DNA of 62,298 nt from positions 1 to 62,298 of the forward strand of contig JAKQLJ010000038.1 of NCBI GenBank assembly GCA_029567195.1, read 5' to 3'. A model generated the notes under the pieces. It was given only the letters and a program-made list of their open reading frames with translations. It did not search any database and was not told the origin of the DNA. Both the position numbers and the translations under genes were made by a program. Source of the DNA: a bacterium (GTDB taxonomy: Bacteria > Patescibacteriota > Minisyncoccia > Moranbacterales > UBA2206). Positions 2,842 to 52,888 of this stretch are shown one piece after another (position 1 is the first letter of the stretch; every line of letters begins with the position of its first letter).

Positions 2842-3864
2842 ATGGCTGATAAAAATCACAAAAAATCTTTTACGACAAAAAAACCAACCGATTTTAAAGC
2901 GGTTAAAAGATTTATTGATAATAACTTTTTTCACTTCAATGCGGCTGTGGTAAAGAGCGCTTCAGAAGCTTATTTAAAGCACCTCAATAGCGGTGGCAAA
3001 ATGTTTCTTACCTTAGCCGGCGCAATGAGCACGGCCGAGATTGGAATTACTCTTGCGGAGATGATAAGAAAAGACAAGGTTCACGCGATTTGTTGCACGG
3101 GAGCCAATCTCGAAGAGGATATTTTTAATCTGGTTGCTCATGATTGTTATAAAAAAGTGCCCGATTATCGTTATTTATCCCGGGATGACGAGGAAAAATT
3201 ATTGAAAAACAATTTTAACCGGGTAACTGACACCTGCATTCCCGAAGAAGAAGCAATGAGAAAAGTGGAGGAAAAATTATATGTCGTCTGGGGAAGGGCG
3301 GAAAAAGAAGGAAAAAGATTTTTCCCGTATGAATATATTTATCAGTTGATCAGGGAAGAAAGACTTAAAAAAGAATATCAGATTGACCCGAAAAATTCCT
3401 GGGTAATTGCCGCTTGCCAGAAAAACATTCCTATTTTTACGGCCGGCTGGGAAGATTCTACTCTGGGCAACGAATTTGTGGCGGAAAAAATAAGAGGAAG
3501 ATTCAAAAGTTTTAATCCTATAAGAGGAGGGCTGGAAGTAATGGAGGATCTGATCGGGTGGTATAAGAAAAATTCAAAAGACAGTTCTATCGGCTTTTTT
3601 CAAATCGGCGGGGGTATCTCCGGTGATTTTCCCATTTGTGTTGTGCCTCTGATTCAGCAGGACTTAATGGAAAATTGCCGTCTGTGGGGATATTTTTGCC
3701 AGATATCAAATTGCACGACTTCTTACGGTTCATATTCCGGAGCAGTTCCCAATGAAAAAATTACCTGGGGAAAAATTGGCAAAAATACTCCGCAATTCGT
3801 CATTGAAAGCGATGCCAGCATTGTTGCTCCGCTGATATTCGCTTATATTTTGGGTTATAAATAA
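2842..3864 (+). CDS. Deoxyhypusine synthase-like protein
   Basis: LAGAMSTA, TGANLEED, FQIGGGISGDF and YSGAVPNEKITWGK (catalytic Lys retained). Confidence 0.9.
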   Translation: MADKNHKKSFTTKKPTDFKAVKRFIDNNFFHFNAAVVKSASEAYLKHLNSGGKMFLTLAGAMSTAEIGITLAEMIRKDKVHAICCTGANLEEDIFNLVAHDCYKKVPDYRYLSRDDEEKLLKNNFNRVTDTCIPEEEAMRKVEEKLYVVWGRAEKEGKRFFPYEYIYQLIREERLKKEYQIDPKNSWVIAACQKNIPIFTAGWEDSTLGNEFVAEKIRGRFKSFNPIRGGLEVMEDLIGWYKKNSKDSSIGFFQIGGGISGDFPICVVPLIQQDLMENCRLWGYFCQISNCTTSYGSYSGAVPNEKITWGKIGKNTPQFVIESDASIVAPLIFAYILGYK

Positions 3865-3921: not shown

Positions 3922-5079
3922 TTATTTAAGATCAATTTCCTGAAGATCTATTTTGCATCCGGTAGTGCTGGAAATCAGATCAATGACTCTTTGGACTCTT
4001 CCTTTTAGAAAAGAATCTTTCGTTTCCAGAGTCGCTTTCCAAAACAACGGAAGGCTTTGAAGAGCACAATCATAATCTTGATGAAAAGAAGATGCCCACC
4101 AAAATTGGCAACTGTTGAGTGCTTTGTCCAATGCCAAACGGCCTTCGTAAGACATATGGTTTCTGCATTCCAAAACCATTCGGGTCAGTTGCCAAAGAAG
4201 ACGATGAACGGGGTTTTGCGGATGATTCCAGAGAGGAAAGGGAATATTATTGTCCATATCTTCTTTGCTGGTTGACCAGCTTCCCGGAGGAATTTCAAAT
4301 GGCTTTTTGGGGAAATAATCACATATTTCGGAAATCTTTTCCAGCGCCAAGCCTTTTTTTTGGCCTCCATTTCCTATTTCATCCAAGAATCTTTCCAAAT
4401 CTCCGATATATTCTTTGTGATGATGGCCGAAAGTCTCGGCGTCCATTCCAATGACCAGATAGCCATCTTTTCCGTTGATCCATCGTCCGAATTTGGAGTT
4501 GATGTCTTCCAGTATGCTTCCCCGGATCTTTTTAAATGCAATAGAGCTGCTCCAAAGATGACTGCGCAATATGACCGGCAGGCCGTCAGTTTCCGGAATG
4601 AACTCAAATGGGGCAAAACCGTGTTTTTCGCAAAATGGAATGTCTTCCGAAATAACCCATTTGTAATTGTGATTCTTTAGGATAGTAGTTATCCGGGGGC
4701 TGAATGCCATTTCTGGCGGGAAAAATCCTCTGCCAACTTCAAGACCCTCTTTTCTAAGTCCCTCCTTGTTTAGACGAATTTGACGGTCTATTTCATGTTC
4801 GTCCAGAAGCGGTAAAATCGGATGATAAGCTCCGCTTCCGGTCAGTTCCATCTTTTCTTTCCTGATTGCTTCGGCAAACAGTCCGAGCAGTTTTGCATGG
4901 CCGCAATGCTTAAGCAATTCGACCAATGAATAATTGATATTTACCGTAAAACAAGCCTTTTCATGTCGGACAATTAAATCAAGAAGCGGATAATAGCACT
5001 CTTCCAAAATTCTTTCCAGTATCTCCTTGGATTGCCAGGGAGGCTGGTAGAAATGCAAAAGAAAACCGAGATGTTTCAT
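3922..5079 (-). CDS. Glycoside hydrolase family 57 protein
   Basis: HFYQP, YHPILPLL, FFPPEMAF, MDAETFGHH, SCQFWW motifs. Confidence 0.85.
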   Translation of the reverse strand: MKHLGFLLHFYQPPWQSKEILERILEECYYPLLDLIVRHEKACFTVNINYSLVELLKHCGHAKLLGLFAEAIRKEKMELTGSGAYHPILPLLDEHEIDRQIRLNKEGLRKEGLEVGRGFFPPEMAFSPRITTILKNHNYKWVISEDIPFCEKHGFAPFEFIPETDGLPVILRSHLWSSSIAFKKIRGSILEDINSKFGRWINGKDGYLVIGMDAETFGHHHKEYIGDLERFLDEIGNGGQKKGLALEKISEICDYFPKKPFEIPPGSWSTSKEDMDNNIPFPLWNHPQNPVHRLLWQLTRMVLECRNHMSYEGRLALDKALNSCQFWWASSFHQDYDCALQSLPLFWKATLETKDSFLKGRVQRVIDLISSTTGCKIDLQEIDLK

Positions 5080-5287: not shown

Positions 5288-5509
5288 TCAGTTTCGAGTG
5301 GGGGGGTCGTTCAAATTGGCAAAGCAAAGAGATTTTCTTTCGCCTTTTTCATCGCACACTGTTACTGGTGATTTACATATCCCGTTAATAATGTCAGTGC
5401 CGCCACAGCGGGGACATGTTGCCGTGTTAACAACGCTTTTTTTTCTGAGGGTTTTTTTCGCCCCATCTTGTAAATTTCTCAGTTTATCCTCATCTTTTGG
5501 AAAAAACAT
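5288..5509 (-). CDS. Small Cys-rich protein, 73 aa (CPRCGG, Zn-ribbon-like)
   Basis: GAGGAGG SD 5' of ATG; five Cys including a CxxC. Confidence 0.65.
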   Translation of the reverse strand: MFFPKDEDKLRNLQDGAKKTLRKKSVVNTATCPRCGGTDIINGICKSPVTVCDEKGERKSLCFANLNDPPTRN

Positions 5510-5565: not shown

Positions 5566-5586
5566 AAAAAACCGCCGCCGGCGGTT
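5566..5586 (-). terminator. Attenuator-type terminator of leader unit C
   Basis: AACCGCC-GGC-GGCGGTT followed by a T run. Confidence 0.7.
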
Positions 5587-5613
5587 GTCTTTTGGTTCGA
5601 TTTTCTTTTCTTT

Positions 5614-5691
5614 CTACGAACGCTTAAAAACAACCGCTTGGCGAATGGCGAGCAATAGTAGGCCTAGCAAATTGTTTTGTCGTTTGTTCAT
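5614..5691 (-). CDS. Putative leader peptide C, 25 aa (MNKRQNNLLGLLLLAIRQAVVFKRS)
   Basis: Manual translation; ATG lies 6 nt after a -10 box; its 3' end is complementary to the terminator arm. Confidence 0.55.
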   Translation of the reverse strand: MNKRQNNLLGLLLLAIRQAVVFKRS

Positions 5692-5697
5692 AATAAT

Positions 5698-5726
5698 AAT
5701 TTAATACGGCTATTATTTTTTGTCAA
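5698..5726 (-). promoter_or_regulatory. Sigma70-type promoter of unit C
   Basis: TTGACA-N17-TAAATT. Confidence 0.6.
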
Positions 5727-5972: not shown

Positions 5973-6005
5973 TAAAAAGAAACACGCTATTTGTTAAAGA
6001 GCCAT

Positions 6006-6037
6006 AAAAAAAGCAAGCGGACAAGGCGCTTGCTTTT
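6006..6037. terminator. Bidirectional intrinsic terminator
   Basis: AAAAGCAAGCG / CGCTTGCTTTT. Confidence 0.7.
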
Positions 6038-6046
6038 GAAAAGGTT

Positions 6047-6199
6047 TTAAGATGTCCGGAAGCTTTCTACGGCATCATTGTATAATTTTTGGCATACCGG
6101 ACATAAATTTTTGCCAGGAATGACCTCTCTTTTTTTGCTGCAACAGTTGTTGCAGCATCTTTCTTTGGGATGAGGATCTTTCGGGTGTTCTTTTTCCAT
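6047..6199 (-). CDS. Small Cys-rich protein, 50 aa (MEKEHPKDPHPKERCCNNCCSKKREVIPGKNLCPVCQKLYNDAVESFRTS)
   Basis: AAGAGGTG SD; CxxC ... CPVC pattern; not in the ORF track. Confidence 0.65.
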   Translation of the reverse strand: MEKEHPKDPHPKERCCNNCCSKKREVIPGKNLCPVCQKLYNDAVESFRTS

Positions 6200-6211
6200 T
6201 GTTTTCACCTC

Positions 6212-6475
6212 TTAATTCTTTCCGTTTCCGTTTATTCGGAGAAAGAGCTTTACTTCAGGTGAAGCTTGATTTCCAATGTCGCGGCACGATTTTTGGTGAT
6301 CGCACCTTCCGCCATGGAGACAAACATCATAAGGATACTTTTTTTGATCGCGAGCCTCCTCAAGGATTTCCGGTCCCCGAGGACAATGCCTGAGGGGATA
6401 AAAACCCGGTTCAGTTTCTATCCTGCTTCTCAAGGCTCTTATTTCCTGCTTTCTGTCAGACGGATAAAACGCCAT
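6212..6475 (-). CDS. Small Cys/His-containing protein, 87 aa
   Basis: AAGGAGG SD; HCPRG and CLHGGRCDHQKSC. Confidence 0.6.
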   Translation of the reverse strand: MAFYPSDRKQEIRALRSRIETEPGFYPLRHCPRGPEILEEARDQKKYPYDVCLHGGRCDHQKSCRDIGNQASPEVKLFLRINGNGKN

Positions 6476-6534
6476 TTTTCCCTCCTTTTATTTTCTATTT
6501 TTCTAAATTGCTTTTATTTAGTTTAAAAAAGAAC

Positions 6535-6605
6535 AAAAAAACCGACTGCCGTCGGGTTGATTTTAGATATTTTTTAAAAAGTAAAATCAACTCGACGATG
6601 GTCGG
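6535..6605 (-). promoter_or_regulatory. Antiterminator/terminator switch of leader unit B
   Basis: CCGACCATCGTCGAGTTGATTTT can pair with AAAATCAACCCGACGGCAGTCGG (20 of 23 positions). The latter contains the terminator CCGAC-GGCA-GTCGG plus a T run. Confidence 0.7.
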
Positions 6606-6649
6606 ATAATAATGGTAATAATAATTTGGCTTAACAGGTTCTTTTTCAT
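6587..6649 (-). CDS. Putative leader peptide B, 20 aa (MKKNLLSQIIITIIIRPSSS)
   Basis: ATG 7 nt after TATAAT; six Ile codons within seven positions. Confidence 0.6.
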   Translation of the reverse strand: MKKNLLSQIIITIIIRPSSS

Positions 6650-6656
6650 TTAATTT

Positions 6657-6685
6657 ATTATAATATATGGCTGAAAAATTTTCAA
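6657..6685 (-). promoter_or_regulatory. Sigma70-type promoter of unit B
   Basis: TTGAAA-N17-TATAAT. Confidence 0.65.
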
Positions 6686-6756
6686 ATAATAGGGTGCCAA
6701 GGAAGAGAATTGCTTCATCATGTTTTGATGAGCTCTCTTCCTCGGCGGGAACCGCT

Positions 6757-6987
6757 TTAGAAAAACGGCTGTTTTGAATCGGGGTCAGGAGGTGTAAGGT
6801 TGCAAACCCCCGGGATATGCTTGTCTTCCTCAGTAGCAATTACTTCCTTAATATGGCTACTTTCTATTTGTGCAGAAGGTACTCCACATTTTCGACGACT
6901 TTCCTTTCTCCGGGCTTTTCTGAGACATTCGGCAATATTATCGCAGCTTGCTACATCAAATTCTTCTCCATCGCGCATACAATTCAT
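6757..6987 (-). CDS. Small Cys-containing protein, 76 aa
   Basis: AAGGAG SD upstream; five Cys. Confidence 0.5.
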   Translation of the reverse strand: MNCMRDGEEFDVASCDNIAECLRKARRKESRRKCGVPSAQIESSHIKEVIATEEDKHIPGVCNLTPPDPDSKQPFF

Positions 6988-7216: not shown

Positions 7217-7240
7217 AAAAATCCCGGTCTTTTACCGGGG
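7217..7240 (-). terminator. Terminator of leader unit A
   Basis: CCCGGT-AAAAG-ACCGGG followed by ATTTTT. Confidence 0.55.
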
Positions 7241-7265
7241 TTCTCTGTTTTTCTTATCCTTTATC

Positions 7266-7355
7266 TTATTGAGATTCCCCAGCAAAAAATTCTCGCCCTA
7301 CAAAGACGGAAGAAATGAGAATAATCTTCAATGTGTTTTTCGCCGAGTTCCTCAT
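7266..7355 (-). CDS. Putative leader peptide A, 29 aa (MRNSAKNTLKIILISSVFVGREFFAGESQ)
   Basis: Manual translation; lies between a consensus promoter and a terminator. Confidence 0.45.
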   Translation of the reverse strand: MRNSAKNTLKIILISSVFVGREFFAGESQ

Positions 7356-7377
7356 TTAAATATTGTTATCTTGTAAA

Positions 7378-7406
7378 AGTATAGGGGATTTTATGTTTTT
7401 TGTCAA
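7378..7406 (-). promoter_or_regulatory. Sigma70-type promoter of unit A
   Basis: TTGACA-N17-TATACT. Confidence 0.7.
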
Positions 7407-7479: not shown

Positions 7480-7507
7480 TTGACAACAAGAGCAAAAGGT
7501 GTATAAT
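7480..7507 (+). promoter_or_regulatory. Sigma70-type promoter upstream of the RRM gene
   Basis: TTGACA-N16-TATAAT. Confidence 0.6.
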
Positions 7508-7684
7508 GGATGTATTGTAAGATTCTCCGTAGTTTCCTGTTTCTTGCCATTTTCCCCACAAGGGAAAAGCGAAAGAAACGAGCCTTATATGAAATAGTGT
7601 AAGGGTAGTCTAAAGGCTGAACGCTTTTTAGAAGTAAAGAGCTAAGTGAGAAGGTCACCTTGCAATTTAAGTTCATATAATTTA

Positions 7685-7743
7685 ATCCGGTTAGATGCCT
7701 CGCGGAGCGAGGACTTCGCTTAGAGCGGAGAATTTAACGGGAT
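7685..7743. repeat. Degenerate palindromic element, CCCGTT...AACGGG family
   Basis: ATCCGGTTAGAT ... ATTTAACGGGAT arms enclosing two small hairpins. Confidence 0.5.
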
Positions 7744-7750
7744 AAAATAA

Positions 7751-8071
7751 ATGGCACAGAAACTTTATGTAGGTGGATTAGCATATTCCACTACGGAAGA
7801 ATCTTTGGGAAATCTTTTCGCTCAAGCCGGAACAGTTCAATCTGCCAGTATCATTACTGACAAAATGTCCGGACGATCTCGAGGCTTTGGCTTCGTAGAA
7901 ATGAGCACAGAAGAGGAAGCTCAGGCTGCTGTTGAGATGTTTAATGGAAAAGAGTTCGAAGGAAGAACTTTGACTGTTAACGAAGCTCGTCCTCAGGGAG
8001 ACCGACCAAAAAGAACTGGTGGTTTTAGAGGAAATGACAGAGGCGGTTTTGGAAGACGAGACCGATTCTAA
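7751..8071 (+). CDS. RRM-domain RNA-binding protein (Rbp-like)
   Basis: RNP2 LYVGGL, RNP1 RGFGFVEM and a Gly/Arg-rich tail. Confidence 0.95.
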   Translation: MAQKLYVGGLAYSTTEESLGNLFAQAGTVQSASIITDKMSGRSRGFGFVEMSTEEEAQAAVEMFNGKEFEGRTLTVNEARPQGDRPKRTGGFRGNDRGGFGRRDRF

Positions 8072-8385: not shown

Positions 8386-8745
8386 ATGAAAAAAATTATT
8401 TTATCTTTATTGATTTTAGCGGCGGCTATTTTTTTGTTTTTTTCTTTTAAATCTTCTTCTAGCGTCGGATCTTTAGAAAATGCCAAATTCATTTTATTTT
8501 ATGGCACCGGCTGTCCGCATTGTGAAATAGTGGAAGAATTTATCAAAAAAAATAATATTCATGAGAAATTGGACTTTCCGGAAGTGGAAGTTTTTTTCAA
8601 TAAGGATAATGCAGCTGTTTTTGCTCAAAAGGCCAAGGAATGCGGTCTGGATGAGAAAAATTTGGGCGTGCCGCTCTTTTGGGCGGAAGGCAAATGTTAT
8701 AGCGGAGACAAAGACATAATCAGTTATTTAAGTGACAAGCAATAA
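8386..8745 (+). CDS. Exported thioredoxin/glutaredoxin-like protein
   Basis: Signal anchor, GCPHC, and GVP cis-Pro motif. Confidence 0.75.
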   Translation: MKKIILSLLILAAAIFLFFSFKSSSSVGSLENAKFILFYGTGCPHCEIVEEFIKKNNIHEKLDFPEVEVFFNKDNAAVFAQKAKECGLDEKNLGVPLFWAEGKCYSGDKDIISYLSDKQ

Positions 8746-8812
8746 GTGACAAGTAACATGTAACAAGTGACATGTGACAAGTAACAAGTAATAAGAAATA
8801 AGTGACAAGTAG
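8738..8812. repeat. Degenerate heptamer tandem array (TGACAAG/TAACAAG)
   Basis: About ten imperfect 7-nt units at the gene junction. Confidence 0.8.
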
Positions 8813-25812: not shown

Positions 25813-25898
25813 TGCCGCGTAAAGAAATTTGCTAAAGCAAATTTCCACGCGGCTACCACGTGATGAAATTTTTTCAGAAAAAATTTCATTTTACGTGG
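25813..25898. repeat. Double-hairpin element, GCCGCGT family, copy 1
   Basis: TGCCGCGT..CACGCGGC and CCACGT..TGAAATTTT/AAAATTTCA..ACGTGG. Confidence 0.75.
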
Positions 25899-26291
25899 TG
25901 GAGATGGCGAGAATTGAACTCGCGTCCAAAATTATTCTTCCAAAATAATCTACAAGTTTAGCTTATCTGTTTGTTCAATTAAAGATAATAAATAAGCAAA
26001 ATCACTTTAATTTATTTCTGATATAATTTTACTAATATTACTCAGAAAAAACAATATTAGCTATTCTGATGTTTGACACCAAGATCTGCCTATCAGAAGT
26101 CGGCAGTTTGATGGCTAAAGCTATGTTTAAGCTAAAGCAGGAGCGAAAGACGGTGCAAAAGCTTGCGCAATTGCTGTCTTTGCCTTTGTTATGAAGTTTG
26201 CACTTATAACTTTGATAAAAATTTTAACGGGTCATTATCATTCCCGACTTGCCTATTTTAAAAGTACAACCTGTCGAAACCAAACATCCCC
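25896..26291 (-). ncRNA. ssrA: tmRNA
   Basis: 5' GGGGATGTTTGGTTTCGACAGG; 3' T-arm GTTCAATTC and CATCTCCACCA; G3.U Ala identity pair; tag frame 26127-26201; adjacent to smpB. Confidence 0.95.
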
Positions 26292-52800: not shown

Positions 52801-52847
52801 AGAGTTGGACGGGGAAATATCTTAAGGAAGTTTTAAGTAGCAAGTGA
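49821..52847 (+). CDS. uvrA: Excinuclease ABC subunit A, copy 1
   Basis: GISGSGKST, two ABC signatures, Zn fingers; three in-frame palindromic insertions. Confidence 0.98.
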   Translation: MDKLVIRGAREHNLKNINLELPRNKFIVFTGISGSGKSTLAFDTIFAEGQRRYLESLSSYARQFLGQMNKPEVDLIEGLSPAISIDQKAASHNPRSTVGTVTEIHDYLRLLYAKIGVPHCPIRLPGGQVCGREIKKMSTDEIVDRIIDLCSPSPPSRGRDTSPRAGEEDRVVKILSPVVRQRKGEYSTLLSEMFKRGFSRAIVNGKEIKLEAKMDGKIKLERYKKHDIDILVDEMEINDENISRIFEGVERALKLSSGIVKIKLPPSSSVSTKSKLFPLGKGEGKGGEFIFNQKLACPVHEVEFPELEPRLFSFNSPFGACPACEGLGTKREIDPVLVAPDMNKTIAQGGLMPWSYKKNNWQGTILRAVTNYFHISDNVRLRDLLEDDFNILMYGRPVQENNNDEELTYEYSAEGGDYENIPVTLRSKTGTNWKYNMEWRGVVGYLEDRYKKTDSEAVREDIEKYMSNNPCSLCKGTRYKKEVMLVTVNRKNISEISAISVEKLLEFFDGLTLSKNEEIIAGRILKEVKNRLKFLENVGLGYLTLSRAANTLAGGETQRIRLASQIGSQLVGVLYILDEPSVGLHARDNNKLLETLLKLRDVGNTLIVVEHDEETMRAADYLVDIGPGAGKLGGEIVAEGSPEEVIRNKKSLTAAYLRGEKEIEIPSFRRPVKNKKWIIVRGARENNLKNITVEFPLKVLTTVTGVSGSGKSTLVEDILFKSLSSKIMRSLDRPGKHTEIIGSNFINKVIMIDQSPIGRTPRSNPATYTGLFSSIRELFASTRDAKARGYMPGRFSFNVNGGRCDNCRGEGFLKIEMQFMPDVYLPCDVCQGKRYNRETLQVKYKDKNIAGVLEMTVAEAKEFFQNFPDIYDKLKVLEEVGLGYIQLGQPATTLSGGEAQRIKLATELARRSTGDTLYILDEPTTGLHFEDIKKLLNVLNRLVDAGNTVVVIEHNMDVIKTADWIIDLGPEGGENGGKVIVTGTPEEVIKYKKESWTGKYLKEVLSSK
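50186..50207. repeat. In-frame mini-palindrome (RLPGGQV) inside a UvrA CxxC
   Basis: CCGCCTCCCCGGCGG core; 7 extra residues relative to uvrA copy 2. Confidence 0.65.
50271..50325. repeat. In-frame insertion in uvrA (DUF559-flank family)
   Basis: CTCCCCTCCGTCCCGCGGACGGGACACCTCCCCTCGGGCAGGTGAGGAG. Confidence 0.85.
50612..50680. repeat. Second in-frame insertion in uvrA (DUF559-flank-like)
   Basis: GTTTCGAC-AAA-GTCGAAAC then TTCCCCTTAGGAAAGGGAGAAGG. Confidence 0.7.
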
Positions 52848-52888
52848 CAAGTGGCAGGTGACAAGTGACAAGAGATAAATGACAAGGA
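52843..52888. repeat. Heptamer array (GTGACAA)
   Basis: AAGTGACAAGTGGCAGGTGACAAGTGACAAG. Confidence 0.75.

Follow-up and report, generated by a model that had tools for sequence, protein, structure and literature searches.

A probable isoleucine-codon attenuator, nested and leaderless, in a Moranbacterales genome

Unit B, a compact element on the minus strand of a Moranbacterales contig, is probably a ribosome-mediated leader-peptide transcription attenuator that senses charged isoleucine (Ile) transfer RNA (tRNA-Ile) through its AUU and AUC codons; the support is computational, and comes from comparing sequences and folding RNA. The window analysed here is a stretch of 62,298 nucleotides (nt; contig JAKQLJ010000038.1 of assembly GCA_029567195.1), and all coordinates are positions in this window. 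Its own genome, designated G000, comprises 829 kb in 54 contigs (87% complete, 39% GC). Unit B most likely controls two small orphan genes, at 6475..6047. What is new about it is the design and the setting: a nested, leaderless attenuator, in a candidate phyla radiation (CPR) host, uncoupled from biosynthesis in this genome.

Leader-peptide attenuation is known mainly in Proteobacteria, Actinobacteria, and some Firmicutes. Nearly every known example controls synthesis of the sensed amino acid. A full-text search found, in the library covered, no paper joining Patescibacteria or CPR bacteria with leader peptides or ribosome-mediated attenuation.

Anatomy of unit B

Unit B begins with a σ70-like promoter (6685..6657, minus strand) that matches the consensus at 11 of 12 positions in a promoter scan: the −35 hexamer TTGAAA (6685..6680); a 17-nt spacer; and the −10 hexamer TATAAT (6662..6657). 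The leader ATG begins 7 nt past the end of the −10 element, with no Shine-Dalgarno (SD) sequence; transcription therefore probably begins at the start codon itself or right beside it, giving a leaderless mRNA. The leader open reading frame (ORF; 6649..6587, minus strand) comprises 20 codons plus UGA, and its translation is MKKNLLSQIIITIIIRPSSS. Codons 9–15 (6625..6605) read ATT ATT ATT ACC ATT ATT ATC. Thus six of these seven codons specify Ile (five ATT and one ATC), interrupted by a single ACC. The first-pass annotation of this stretch, made from the sequence alone, had singled out this Ile run, and it is present on the minus strand as described.

The same annotation had proposed that the last leader codons and the stop pair with a segment holding both arms of a terminator, and this pairing is borne out. 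The sequence CCGACCATCGTCGAGTTGATTTT (6605..6583), which contains those codons and the UGA, is complementary to AAAATCAACCCGACGGCAGTCGG (6564..6542) at 20 of 23 positions, one of them a G-U pair, and forms the 5' arm of a long hairpin. RNAfold adds one A-U, giving 5+6+10 = 21 pairs, with a folding free energy (ΔG) of −25.3 kcal/mol and a z score of −4.98; none of 200 dinucleotide shuffles folds equally well. A terminator scan finds the predicted intrinsic terminator, also anticipated, at 6555..6535: the hairpin CCGAC-GGCA-GUCGG (6555..6542; ΔG −7.3 kcal/mol by itself) followed by a U7 tract (6541..6535). This small hairpin is nested within the 3' arm of the long one, whose outer 5 bp (CCGAC:GUCGG) directly adjoin the U7 tract.

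Four minus-strand segments describe the alternatives. Segment A (CCGAC, 6605..6601), delimited by RNAfold and covariation, is the 5' strand of the outer stem and pairs with segment D (GUCGG, followed by U7). As read from the sequences, it alternatively forms a weak 4-bp mini-hairpin with B' (CGAC-CAUC-GUCG). Segment B (6598..6582), delimited by fold and covariation, joins B' (UCGUCG, 6598..6593) to the apical 5' arm GUUGAUUUUA (6591..6582); the UGA stop (6589..6587) lies inside this antiterminator strand. Segment C (6565..6549) joins the apical 3' arm (6565..6556) to C', which carries the terminator 5' arm CCGAC at 6555..6551, and pairs with either B or D.

This arrangement exceeds chance expectation. 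A scan of the whole 829-kb genome for ORFs of 10–40 codons with an amino-acid run and a nearby terminator found that six of seven identical codons are reached only by unit B (Ile) and by its neighbour unit C (Leu). The unit B element is also kept in other genera and families.

A proposed switch with three states

In the proposed mechanism, transcription would begin at or next to the AUG, and a ribosome, presumably as a 70S particle, would load on the leaderless mRNA. With no ribosome, A:D and B:C would form one long hairpin ending at the U tract, terminating transcription: the default would be off. Under Ile-tRNA shortage, the ribosomal A site would rest on AUU AUU AUC, and the ribosome would cover or melt segment A only. 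B:C would then sequester C' and leave D single-stranded; with no hairpin at the U tract, polymerase would read through to the 87- and 53-residue genes. Beyond the run, anywhere from Arg to UGA, the ribosome would cover B, enabling C':D to form the small terminator and stop transcription. The A:B' mini-hairpin, with the invariant GUUGAUUUU behind it, may cause polymerase to pause.

This scheme revises one element of the first-pass annotation, which had cast the 20/23-bp fold as an antiterminator set free by a ribosome stalled in the run. Read-through upon stalling is indeed predicted, for the last three codons of the run, but the long fold itself is not the antiterminator. Instead, it is predicted to be terminator-shaped. 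Because its outer 5 bp abut U7, ribosome-free RNA should still terminate; and because the outer stem closes at U7, a stalled ribosome has to melt that stem for read-through.

A conserved frame rich in isoleucine codons

A covariance model, built from five copies, was searched against genomes of the same family and order. It matched 6 of 71 family genomes and 28 of 319 order genomes, the latter in 22 of 106 genera. Homologous loci also came from public records labelled Candidatus Moranbacteria, Parcubacteria, or Patescibacteria, and further variants turned up when public genomes and metagenomes were scanned for the pattern. (Pattern hits in Bacteroidales, Thiomicrorhabdus, Mesorhizobium, Christensenellaceae, and two metagenome contigs are considered chance; the covariance model does not match them.) In a DNA search of relatives, the match was confined to about 100 nt that begin with the Ile run and end with the U tract, and did not extend to the flanking genes. 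G000 itself has one full copy, its other match being merely a 24-nt stretch.

The resulting set of 22 variants contains related sequences from several families, and 14 of them have flanks that enabled the frame to be checked. The Ile frame is open from start to stop in all 14, and each of the other frames has stops in 13. The stop position in the 5' arm is fixed, its identity varying among homologues (TGA, TAA, or TAG). The leader peptide is 18–28 residues long and varies by whole codons; for example, L031 carries one more in-frame ATT than G017. A −10-like hexamer stands 5–8 nt 5' of the start codon in most variants (L042, L046, L047, L048, L049, L050, and G190 unit 1). These −10 boxes were read by eye from the upstream sequences of the relatives; the promoter scan scored the window copy only.

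Codon usage was assessed in the eight codons directly preceding the hairpin, 176 in total for the 22 variants. Ile accounts for 115 of these (65%), compared with 9% of codons in the genome's long ORFs. Only two Leu and one Val are present; the interruptions are mostly Ser, Thr, Asn, Gly, Asp, and Glu. The Ile codons comprise 83 ATT, 26 ATC, and 6 ATA. Thus, ATA makes up 5% of Ile codons in the block versus 29% genome-wide; ATA is read by a different tRNA than are ATT and ATC. Past the run, the peptide (RPSSS, RLKLSRQFCV, PSLAGRF, or RPQLPGEFSF) is not kept between families and tracks the hairpin arm. The pattern fits a codon sensor, and does not fit a membrane peptide, pheromone, or toxin. The earlier suggestion of Ile-tRNA sensing therefore gains from the comparison: Ile run, frame, and stop position are kept in the 22 variants, and, as described below, leaders of two relatives precede a citramalate synthase gene.

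Exclusive helices and their predicted folding

The alternative helices show compensatory changes across the 22 variants. The antiterminator helix B':C' shows 93.6% pairing and 13 double-change cells; for the apical B:C helix the figures are 89.4% and 29. For both, none of 1000 shuffles reaches the observed value. The terminator helix C':D is 93.6% paired with 8 double-change cells, including compensatory changes from A:U to G:C. Shuffles reach its observed values in 1–5 of 1000 cases (pairing, double changes, and covariation score) and in 147 of 1000 for extra pair types. For A:D, 92.7% paired with 5 double-change cells, the corresponding range is 0–9 of 1000. The alignment was fitted to the long hairpin, and C':D was not part of the aligning model.

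B':C' and C':D share the C' strand and so are mutually exclusive, and both show compensatory changes. At one column, C':D pairing is kept as A:U, G:C, or G:U, whereas A:D has an A-C mismatch in five sequences; C':D is therefore the more strictly kept helix. This covariation turned informative after the order-wide search. The eight close variants alone are too conserved: 31 of 500 and 58 of 500 shuffles reached the observed covariation score.

Folding with a masked ribosome reproduces the three states. RNA extending to the U tract was folded after removal of all sequence as far as the ribosome leading edge, with a reach of +8, +10, or +13 nt from the A site; helicase and footprint distances underlie this assumed reach. 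For the window copy, the long hairpin without a ribosome is closed at the U tract (P = 0.95). With the A site on the last two or three codons of the Ile run, depending on reach, GUCGG is predicted to be unpaired (P = 0.01–0.03). With the A site on Arg through the stop, the small terminator is predicted to form (P = 0.95–0.97), in accord with the proposal in the first-pass annotation that a ribosome near the stop causes termination. The predicted effective stall codons are thus the last three of the run (6613..6605).

The 22 variants behave similarly. The median probability that the terminator 3' arm is paired is 1.0 with the ribosome at block codons 1–5, 0.00–0.02 at codons 6–8, 0.12 at codon 9, and 0.97 or more from codon 10 onward. 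Without a ribosome, 16 of the 22 are predicted to be closed. In one variant, L050, this metric is misled by an A-C mismatch near the 3' end; its minimum free energy structures follow the same three states.

Regulated genes and a link to citramalate synthase

The first gene presumably regulated by unit B (6475..6212, minus strand) has a strong SD sequence, AAAGGAGGG, and encodes an 87-residue Cys-containing protein. It starts 59 nt after the U tract, and a promoter scan finds no promoter-like site between. The protein is 45% identical (E-value 4e-28) to the product of the gene behind the homologous leader in G018, so the ORF is a real gene. It has no Pfam match, and a word-indexed homologue search returned only the protein itself. 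The second gene of the presumed operon (6208..6047, minus strand) encodes a protein of 50–53 residues with CxxC motifs and weak similarity (E-value 8e-4) to the product of a gene behind the G017 leader; a hairpin and T-run follow at about 6037..6003. No Pfam match was found for the small proteins of the window or for 10 downstream proteins of relatives.

In 15 variants with flanks, the next gene lies on the same strand, has a strong SD sequence, and starts 25–110 nt after the U tract. The gap in L042 and G018 is only about 25–35 nt, leaving no room for a separate promoter. A promoter for the downstream gene within the hairpin was considered and rejected: its elements would be TTGATT (−35) in the invariant 5' arm and TAAAAT (−10) in the 3' arm, with a spacer of 19–22 nt in all variants, and the scan was negative.

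The short Ile-rich ORF, the intervening predicted terminator, and the exclusive antiterminator expected of leader-peptide attenuators are all present, and so, by the folding model, is the codon placement. Outputs in the pathway of the sensed amino acid, usual for such attenuators though not strictly defining, were not found behind unit B and occur in two relatives. In G000, at 87% completeness, no ilvD, ilvC, or HMGL-like (leuA/cimA-type) gene was found; a RelA/SpoT homologue is present. Given this gene content, the switch would report Ile supply rather than provide feedback on Ile synthesis.

An HMGL-like gene is present in only two of 16 leader-carrying genomes, G182 and G190, and in both a leader of the unit B family lies directly upstream. 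The G182 locus (L050, G182:C27) reads TTGACA-16-TATAAT, 8 nt, the leader peptide MKLKNIFIIIISIIITRLELSSEFSF with its stop, a terminator, an SD sequence, and then the gene, a truncated fragment that matches TIGR00977 citramalate synthase best (320.7 bits). The G190 locus (L058, G190:C4:38500-40300) contains a tandem pair of Ile-leader units separated by about 600 nt: unit 1 precedes a 108-residue Cys-containing orphan, and unit 2 precedes a CimA-type gene (267 bits; PF00682, 158.6 bits). Against the unit B covariance model, the G182 leader scores 50.5 bits and the G190 unit 2 leader scores 41.4 bits. Both resemble unit B in their IIIxIII-type run, their nested hairpin and terminator, and their leaderless promoter geometry. 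They differ in output, a citramalate-route enzyme, whereas unit B, like most copies, fronts small orphan genes in a genome with no HMGL-like gene found. The citramalate route to isoleucine starts with citramalate synthase. Wherever such a gene exists, the leader family thus appears linked to Ile metabolism; in the window, it appears to have been kept or re-used before orphans.

The neighbouring unit C

Unit C (5726..5566, minus strand; 5691..5614 within) follows the same plan: TTGACA-17-TAAATT, 6 nt, and an ATG opening the ORF MNKRQNNLLGLLLLAIRQAVVFKRS, which runs into a nested hairpin and terminator ahead of a 73-residue CPRC protein (5509..5288). It is kept in four relatives (G018, G024, G031, and L042), with peptides of the NNLLLLLL..H.VVV type, and its Leu6 run shows synonymous variation among them (CTA, CTT, TTG, and CTG). 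An open-terminator interval at the end of the Leu run is predicted for the window copy and for G031; two other copies are uninformative with this metric. Unit C thus appears to be an independent replicate of the same design, with a Leu run in place of Ile. (The VVV triplet was discarded as a candidate sensor: a ribosome stalled there, within the 5' arm, is predicted to bring about termination, and the triplet is probably a structural constraint.)

Together, these elements permit a broader but tentative proposal, to which we give not quite an even chance: that units B and C and their relatives in the order are the visible part of a starvation "ribulon" of leaderless, compact, nested attenuators. 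These would first have controlled branched-chain amino-acid enzymes, with cimA in G182 and G190 still behind such a leader, and, after gene loss in auxotrophic, host-dependent CPR bacteria, would have been re-targeted to small, often Cys-rich orphans serving as effectors of an amino-acid-specific response to starvation.

Weighing the evidence

Several points weigh against an Ile-responsive attenuator or limit the case for it. Relatedness among the 22 sequences means that the shuffle statistics exaggerate their independence, and the counts are best taken as supportive. ARAGORN found no tRNA-Ile gene among 29 tRNAs in the assembly, which is 87% complete. The three states are predictions of equilibrium folding with an assumed reach of 8–13 nt, kinetics, pausing, and transcription-translation coupling in CPR bacteria aside. 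Six of the 22 variants lack the predicted outer A:D stem, so default-off is not universal; in those six, the long hairpin is, by prediction, a plain antiterminator. The nested terminator, with its 5-bp stem at −7.3 kcal/mol, is at the weak end for intrinsic terminators. Efficient translation of the SD-less unit B leader is assumed, and among the homologues are some with a GTG or TTG start and some whose SD-less leader is estimated at 8–15 nt. Finally, the regulated genes here have no known link to isoleucine, and downstream genes differ between lineages, as would also fit a free-standing module upstream of whatever follows.

Such a module could be a small-peptide gene with its own promoter and long-stem terminator, whose product acts in trans as a membrane-active peptide, a streptococcal-type pheromone, or a type I toxin, the downstream genes being independent or served by constitutive leak-through. 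The ORF, promoter, and terminator are indeed kept as one compact module ahead of genes that vary by lineage, and the peptide has a basic N-terminus followed by an Ile-rich core. We nevertheless regard this explanation as unlikely. The core is about seven residues, broken by Asp, Glu, Asn, Ser, Thr, Gly, or Arg, and so is too short and polar for a membrane helix; near-absence of Leu and Val is unexpected under selection for hydrophobicity alone; and the C-terminal half follows the hairpin arms and is not kept across families. The genes about 25–35 nt past the U tract in L042 and G018 leave no room for promoters of their own, and a covarying, nested alternative terminator would be purposeless within a plain terminator. 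Nor does the peptide resemble a type I toxin: its hydrophobic stretch is about 7–11 residues, with polar or charged interruptions in homologues, and a consensus scan found no plus-strand promoter-like site at 6500..6700 for an antisense RNA. The two functions are not mutually exclusive, inasmuch as attenuator leader peptides can act in trans, as reported for peTrpL (PMC7298713).

An attenuator might instead sense general translation stress, from ribosome-targeting antibiotics of neighbours or an inhibitor of isoleucyl-tRNA synthetase, and not Ile supply specifically. Antibiotic-sensing upstream-ORF attenuators have this same architecture (PMC12121999), and the outputs of unit B are orphan small proteins instead of Ile enzymes. 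Three observations make this very unlikely: AUU and AUC are enriched exactly where a stall opens the terminator; the sister unit C uses a Leu run; and members of the leader family in G182 and G190 govern a citramalate synthase gene. It is harder still to credit a non-coding structured element (a bidirectional or upstream-gene terminator, a small-RNA gene, or a palindrome of the repetitive extragenic or miniature inverted-repeat transposable element kind) whose ORF is an accident of AT-rich sequence. The hairpin is admittedly the most conserved part, its reverse strand scores 38–57 bits with the covariance model, and ATT repeats arise easily at 39% GC. However, only one frame is open in all 14 variants, the stop position is kept with varying codons, and an indel of +3 stays in frame; ATA is depleted, and the promoter lies at leaderless distance. 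Moreover, the plus-strand version lacks a U tract, and no Rfam family matches at threshold. The element is also single-copy in its own genome; a repetitive palindrome or miniature transposable element is ruled out by that single full copy in G000. Thus, attenuation governed by Ile codons remains the probable explanation for unit B.

Other features of the window

Upstream of unit B lies unit A (7220–7406, minus strand): TTGACA-17-TATACT, a 29-codon SD-less ORF MRNSAKNTLKIILISSVFVGREFFAGESQ, and a terminator (7239..7223), ahead of a 76-residue Cys-rich ORF (6987..6757). It has no single-amino-acid run, and has a sub-threshold Trp_leader match (21.8 bits; gathering score 41). On the plus strand, in the 7480–8071 region, a consensus promoter (TTGACA-16-TATAAT, 12 of 12 positions) lies about 240 nt upstream of an RRM-domain gene (7751..8071), which would therefore have a long 5' untranslated region. 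In L004 and L006 as well, this gene and the leader cluster are syntenic and divergently oriented.

Arrays of a unit of about 7 nt (AAGTGAC or AAGTAAC) occur at 8730–8811 and 52828–52888, 44 kb apart; they constitute the direct-repeat family D1, with seven overlapping 26-nt copies. A 340-residue ORF (2842–3864, plus strand) matches the Pfam DS (deoxyhypusine synthase) family (E-value 8.9e-43) and adjoins a GH57 glycoside hydrolase-like gene (5079..3922, minus strand). The gene for transfer-messenger RNA (tmRNA) is at 25896–26291 on the minus strand (Rfam RF00023, 158.6 bits, full length).

Comparison with known systems

In an Rfam scan of the window, the tmRNA alone reaches its gathering threshold; unit B is matched neither by T-box nor by the amino-acid leader families Leu_leader, Thr_leader, Trp_leader, His_leader, and Phe_leader. 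A permissive scan of unit B gave Phe_leader as the best leader match (18.9 bits versus a gathering threshold of 55; E-value 5.3). The other sub-threshold matches, to microRNA and small-RNA models, were dismissed as reflecting only a long AU-rich hairpin.

If unit B functions as proposed, an amino-acid-sensing circuit of a CPR bacterium packs promoter, sensor, and terminator into about 150 nt, and both transcription-translation coupling and leaderless initiation would be implied in CPR organisms. A sensor uncoupled from biosynthesis (the genome shows no ilvC, ilvD, or cimA/leuA-type gene) would mark orphan small proteins as candidate starvation effectors, and so would give a handle on proteins that are otherwise unannotated. 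The nested design, closed unless a ribosome stalls, would constitute a minimal attenuator usable in cell-free work and synthetic biology.

The classical enterobacterial attenuators are those of ilvGMEDA (ilvL) and ilvBN (ivbL), together with thrL, leuL, trpL, hisL, and pheL. Unit B shares with these a codon run for the sensed residue, a stop in or near the first segment, mutually exclusive antiterminator and terminator, and a U tract. It shares also, by prediction, termination of the untranslated element ("superattenuation"). Unlike them, unit B is SD-less and probably leaderless, and its segments are nested (1:4 closes over 2:3), where theirs are in series. Its outputs are orphan small proteins, in a genome where searches turned up no ilvC, ilvD, or HMGL-like gene.

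The Corynebacterium glutamicum ilvBNC operon offers a nearer parallel. Its leader peptide IlvL, MTIIRLVVVTARRLP, is encoded by a leaderless transcript that starts 1 nt from the leader start codon; the overlapping terminator and antiterminator hairpins interconvert without full unfolding; and mutation of the start codon lowers expression (PMC11857589). The equivalent mutation would be expected to lower expression of the unit B genes too, as the untranslated RNA is predicted to be closed. IlvL mixes Ile, Val, and Leu codons and, within a regulatory region of 292 nt, controls acetohydroxy-acid synthase and isomeroreductase (PMC11857589). By contrast, the unit B run is Ile-only, the switch is about 115 nt, the host is a CPR bacterium, and the outputs have no assigned function.

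Mycobacterial polycysteine small ORFs, which also are leaderless, form a "ribulon": a single amino-acid signal is common to several independent units, and stalling of a ribosome in the Cys tract remodels the downstream RNA structure (10.1101/834739). Unit B resembles these in having a leaderless sensory small ORF with a homo-amino-acid tract. It differs in that its target is an intrinsic terminator with U7, and the SD sequence of the next gene lies outside the switch. Among studied systems, then, C. glutamicum ilvBNC is the closest to unit B; in concept, the closest are the mycobacterial polycysteine small ORFs.

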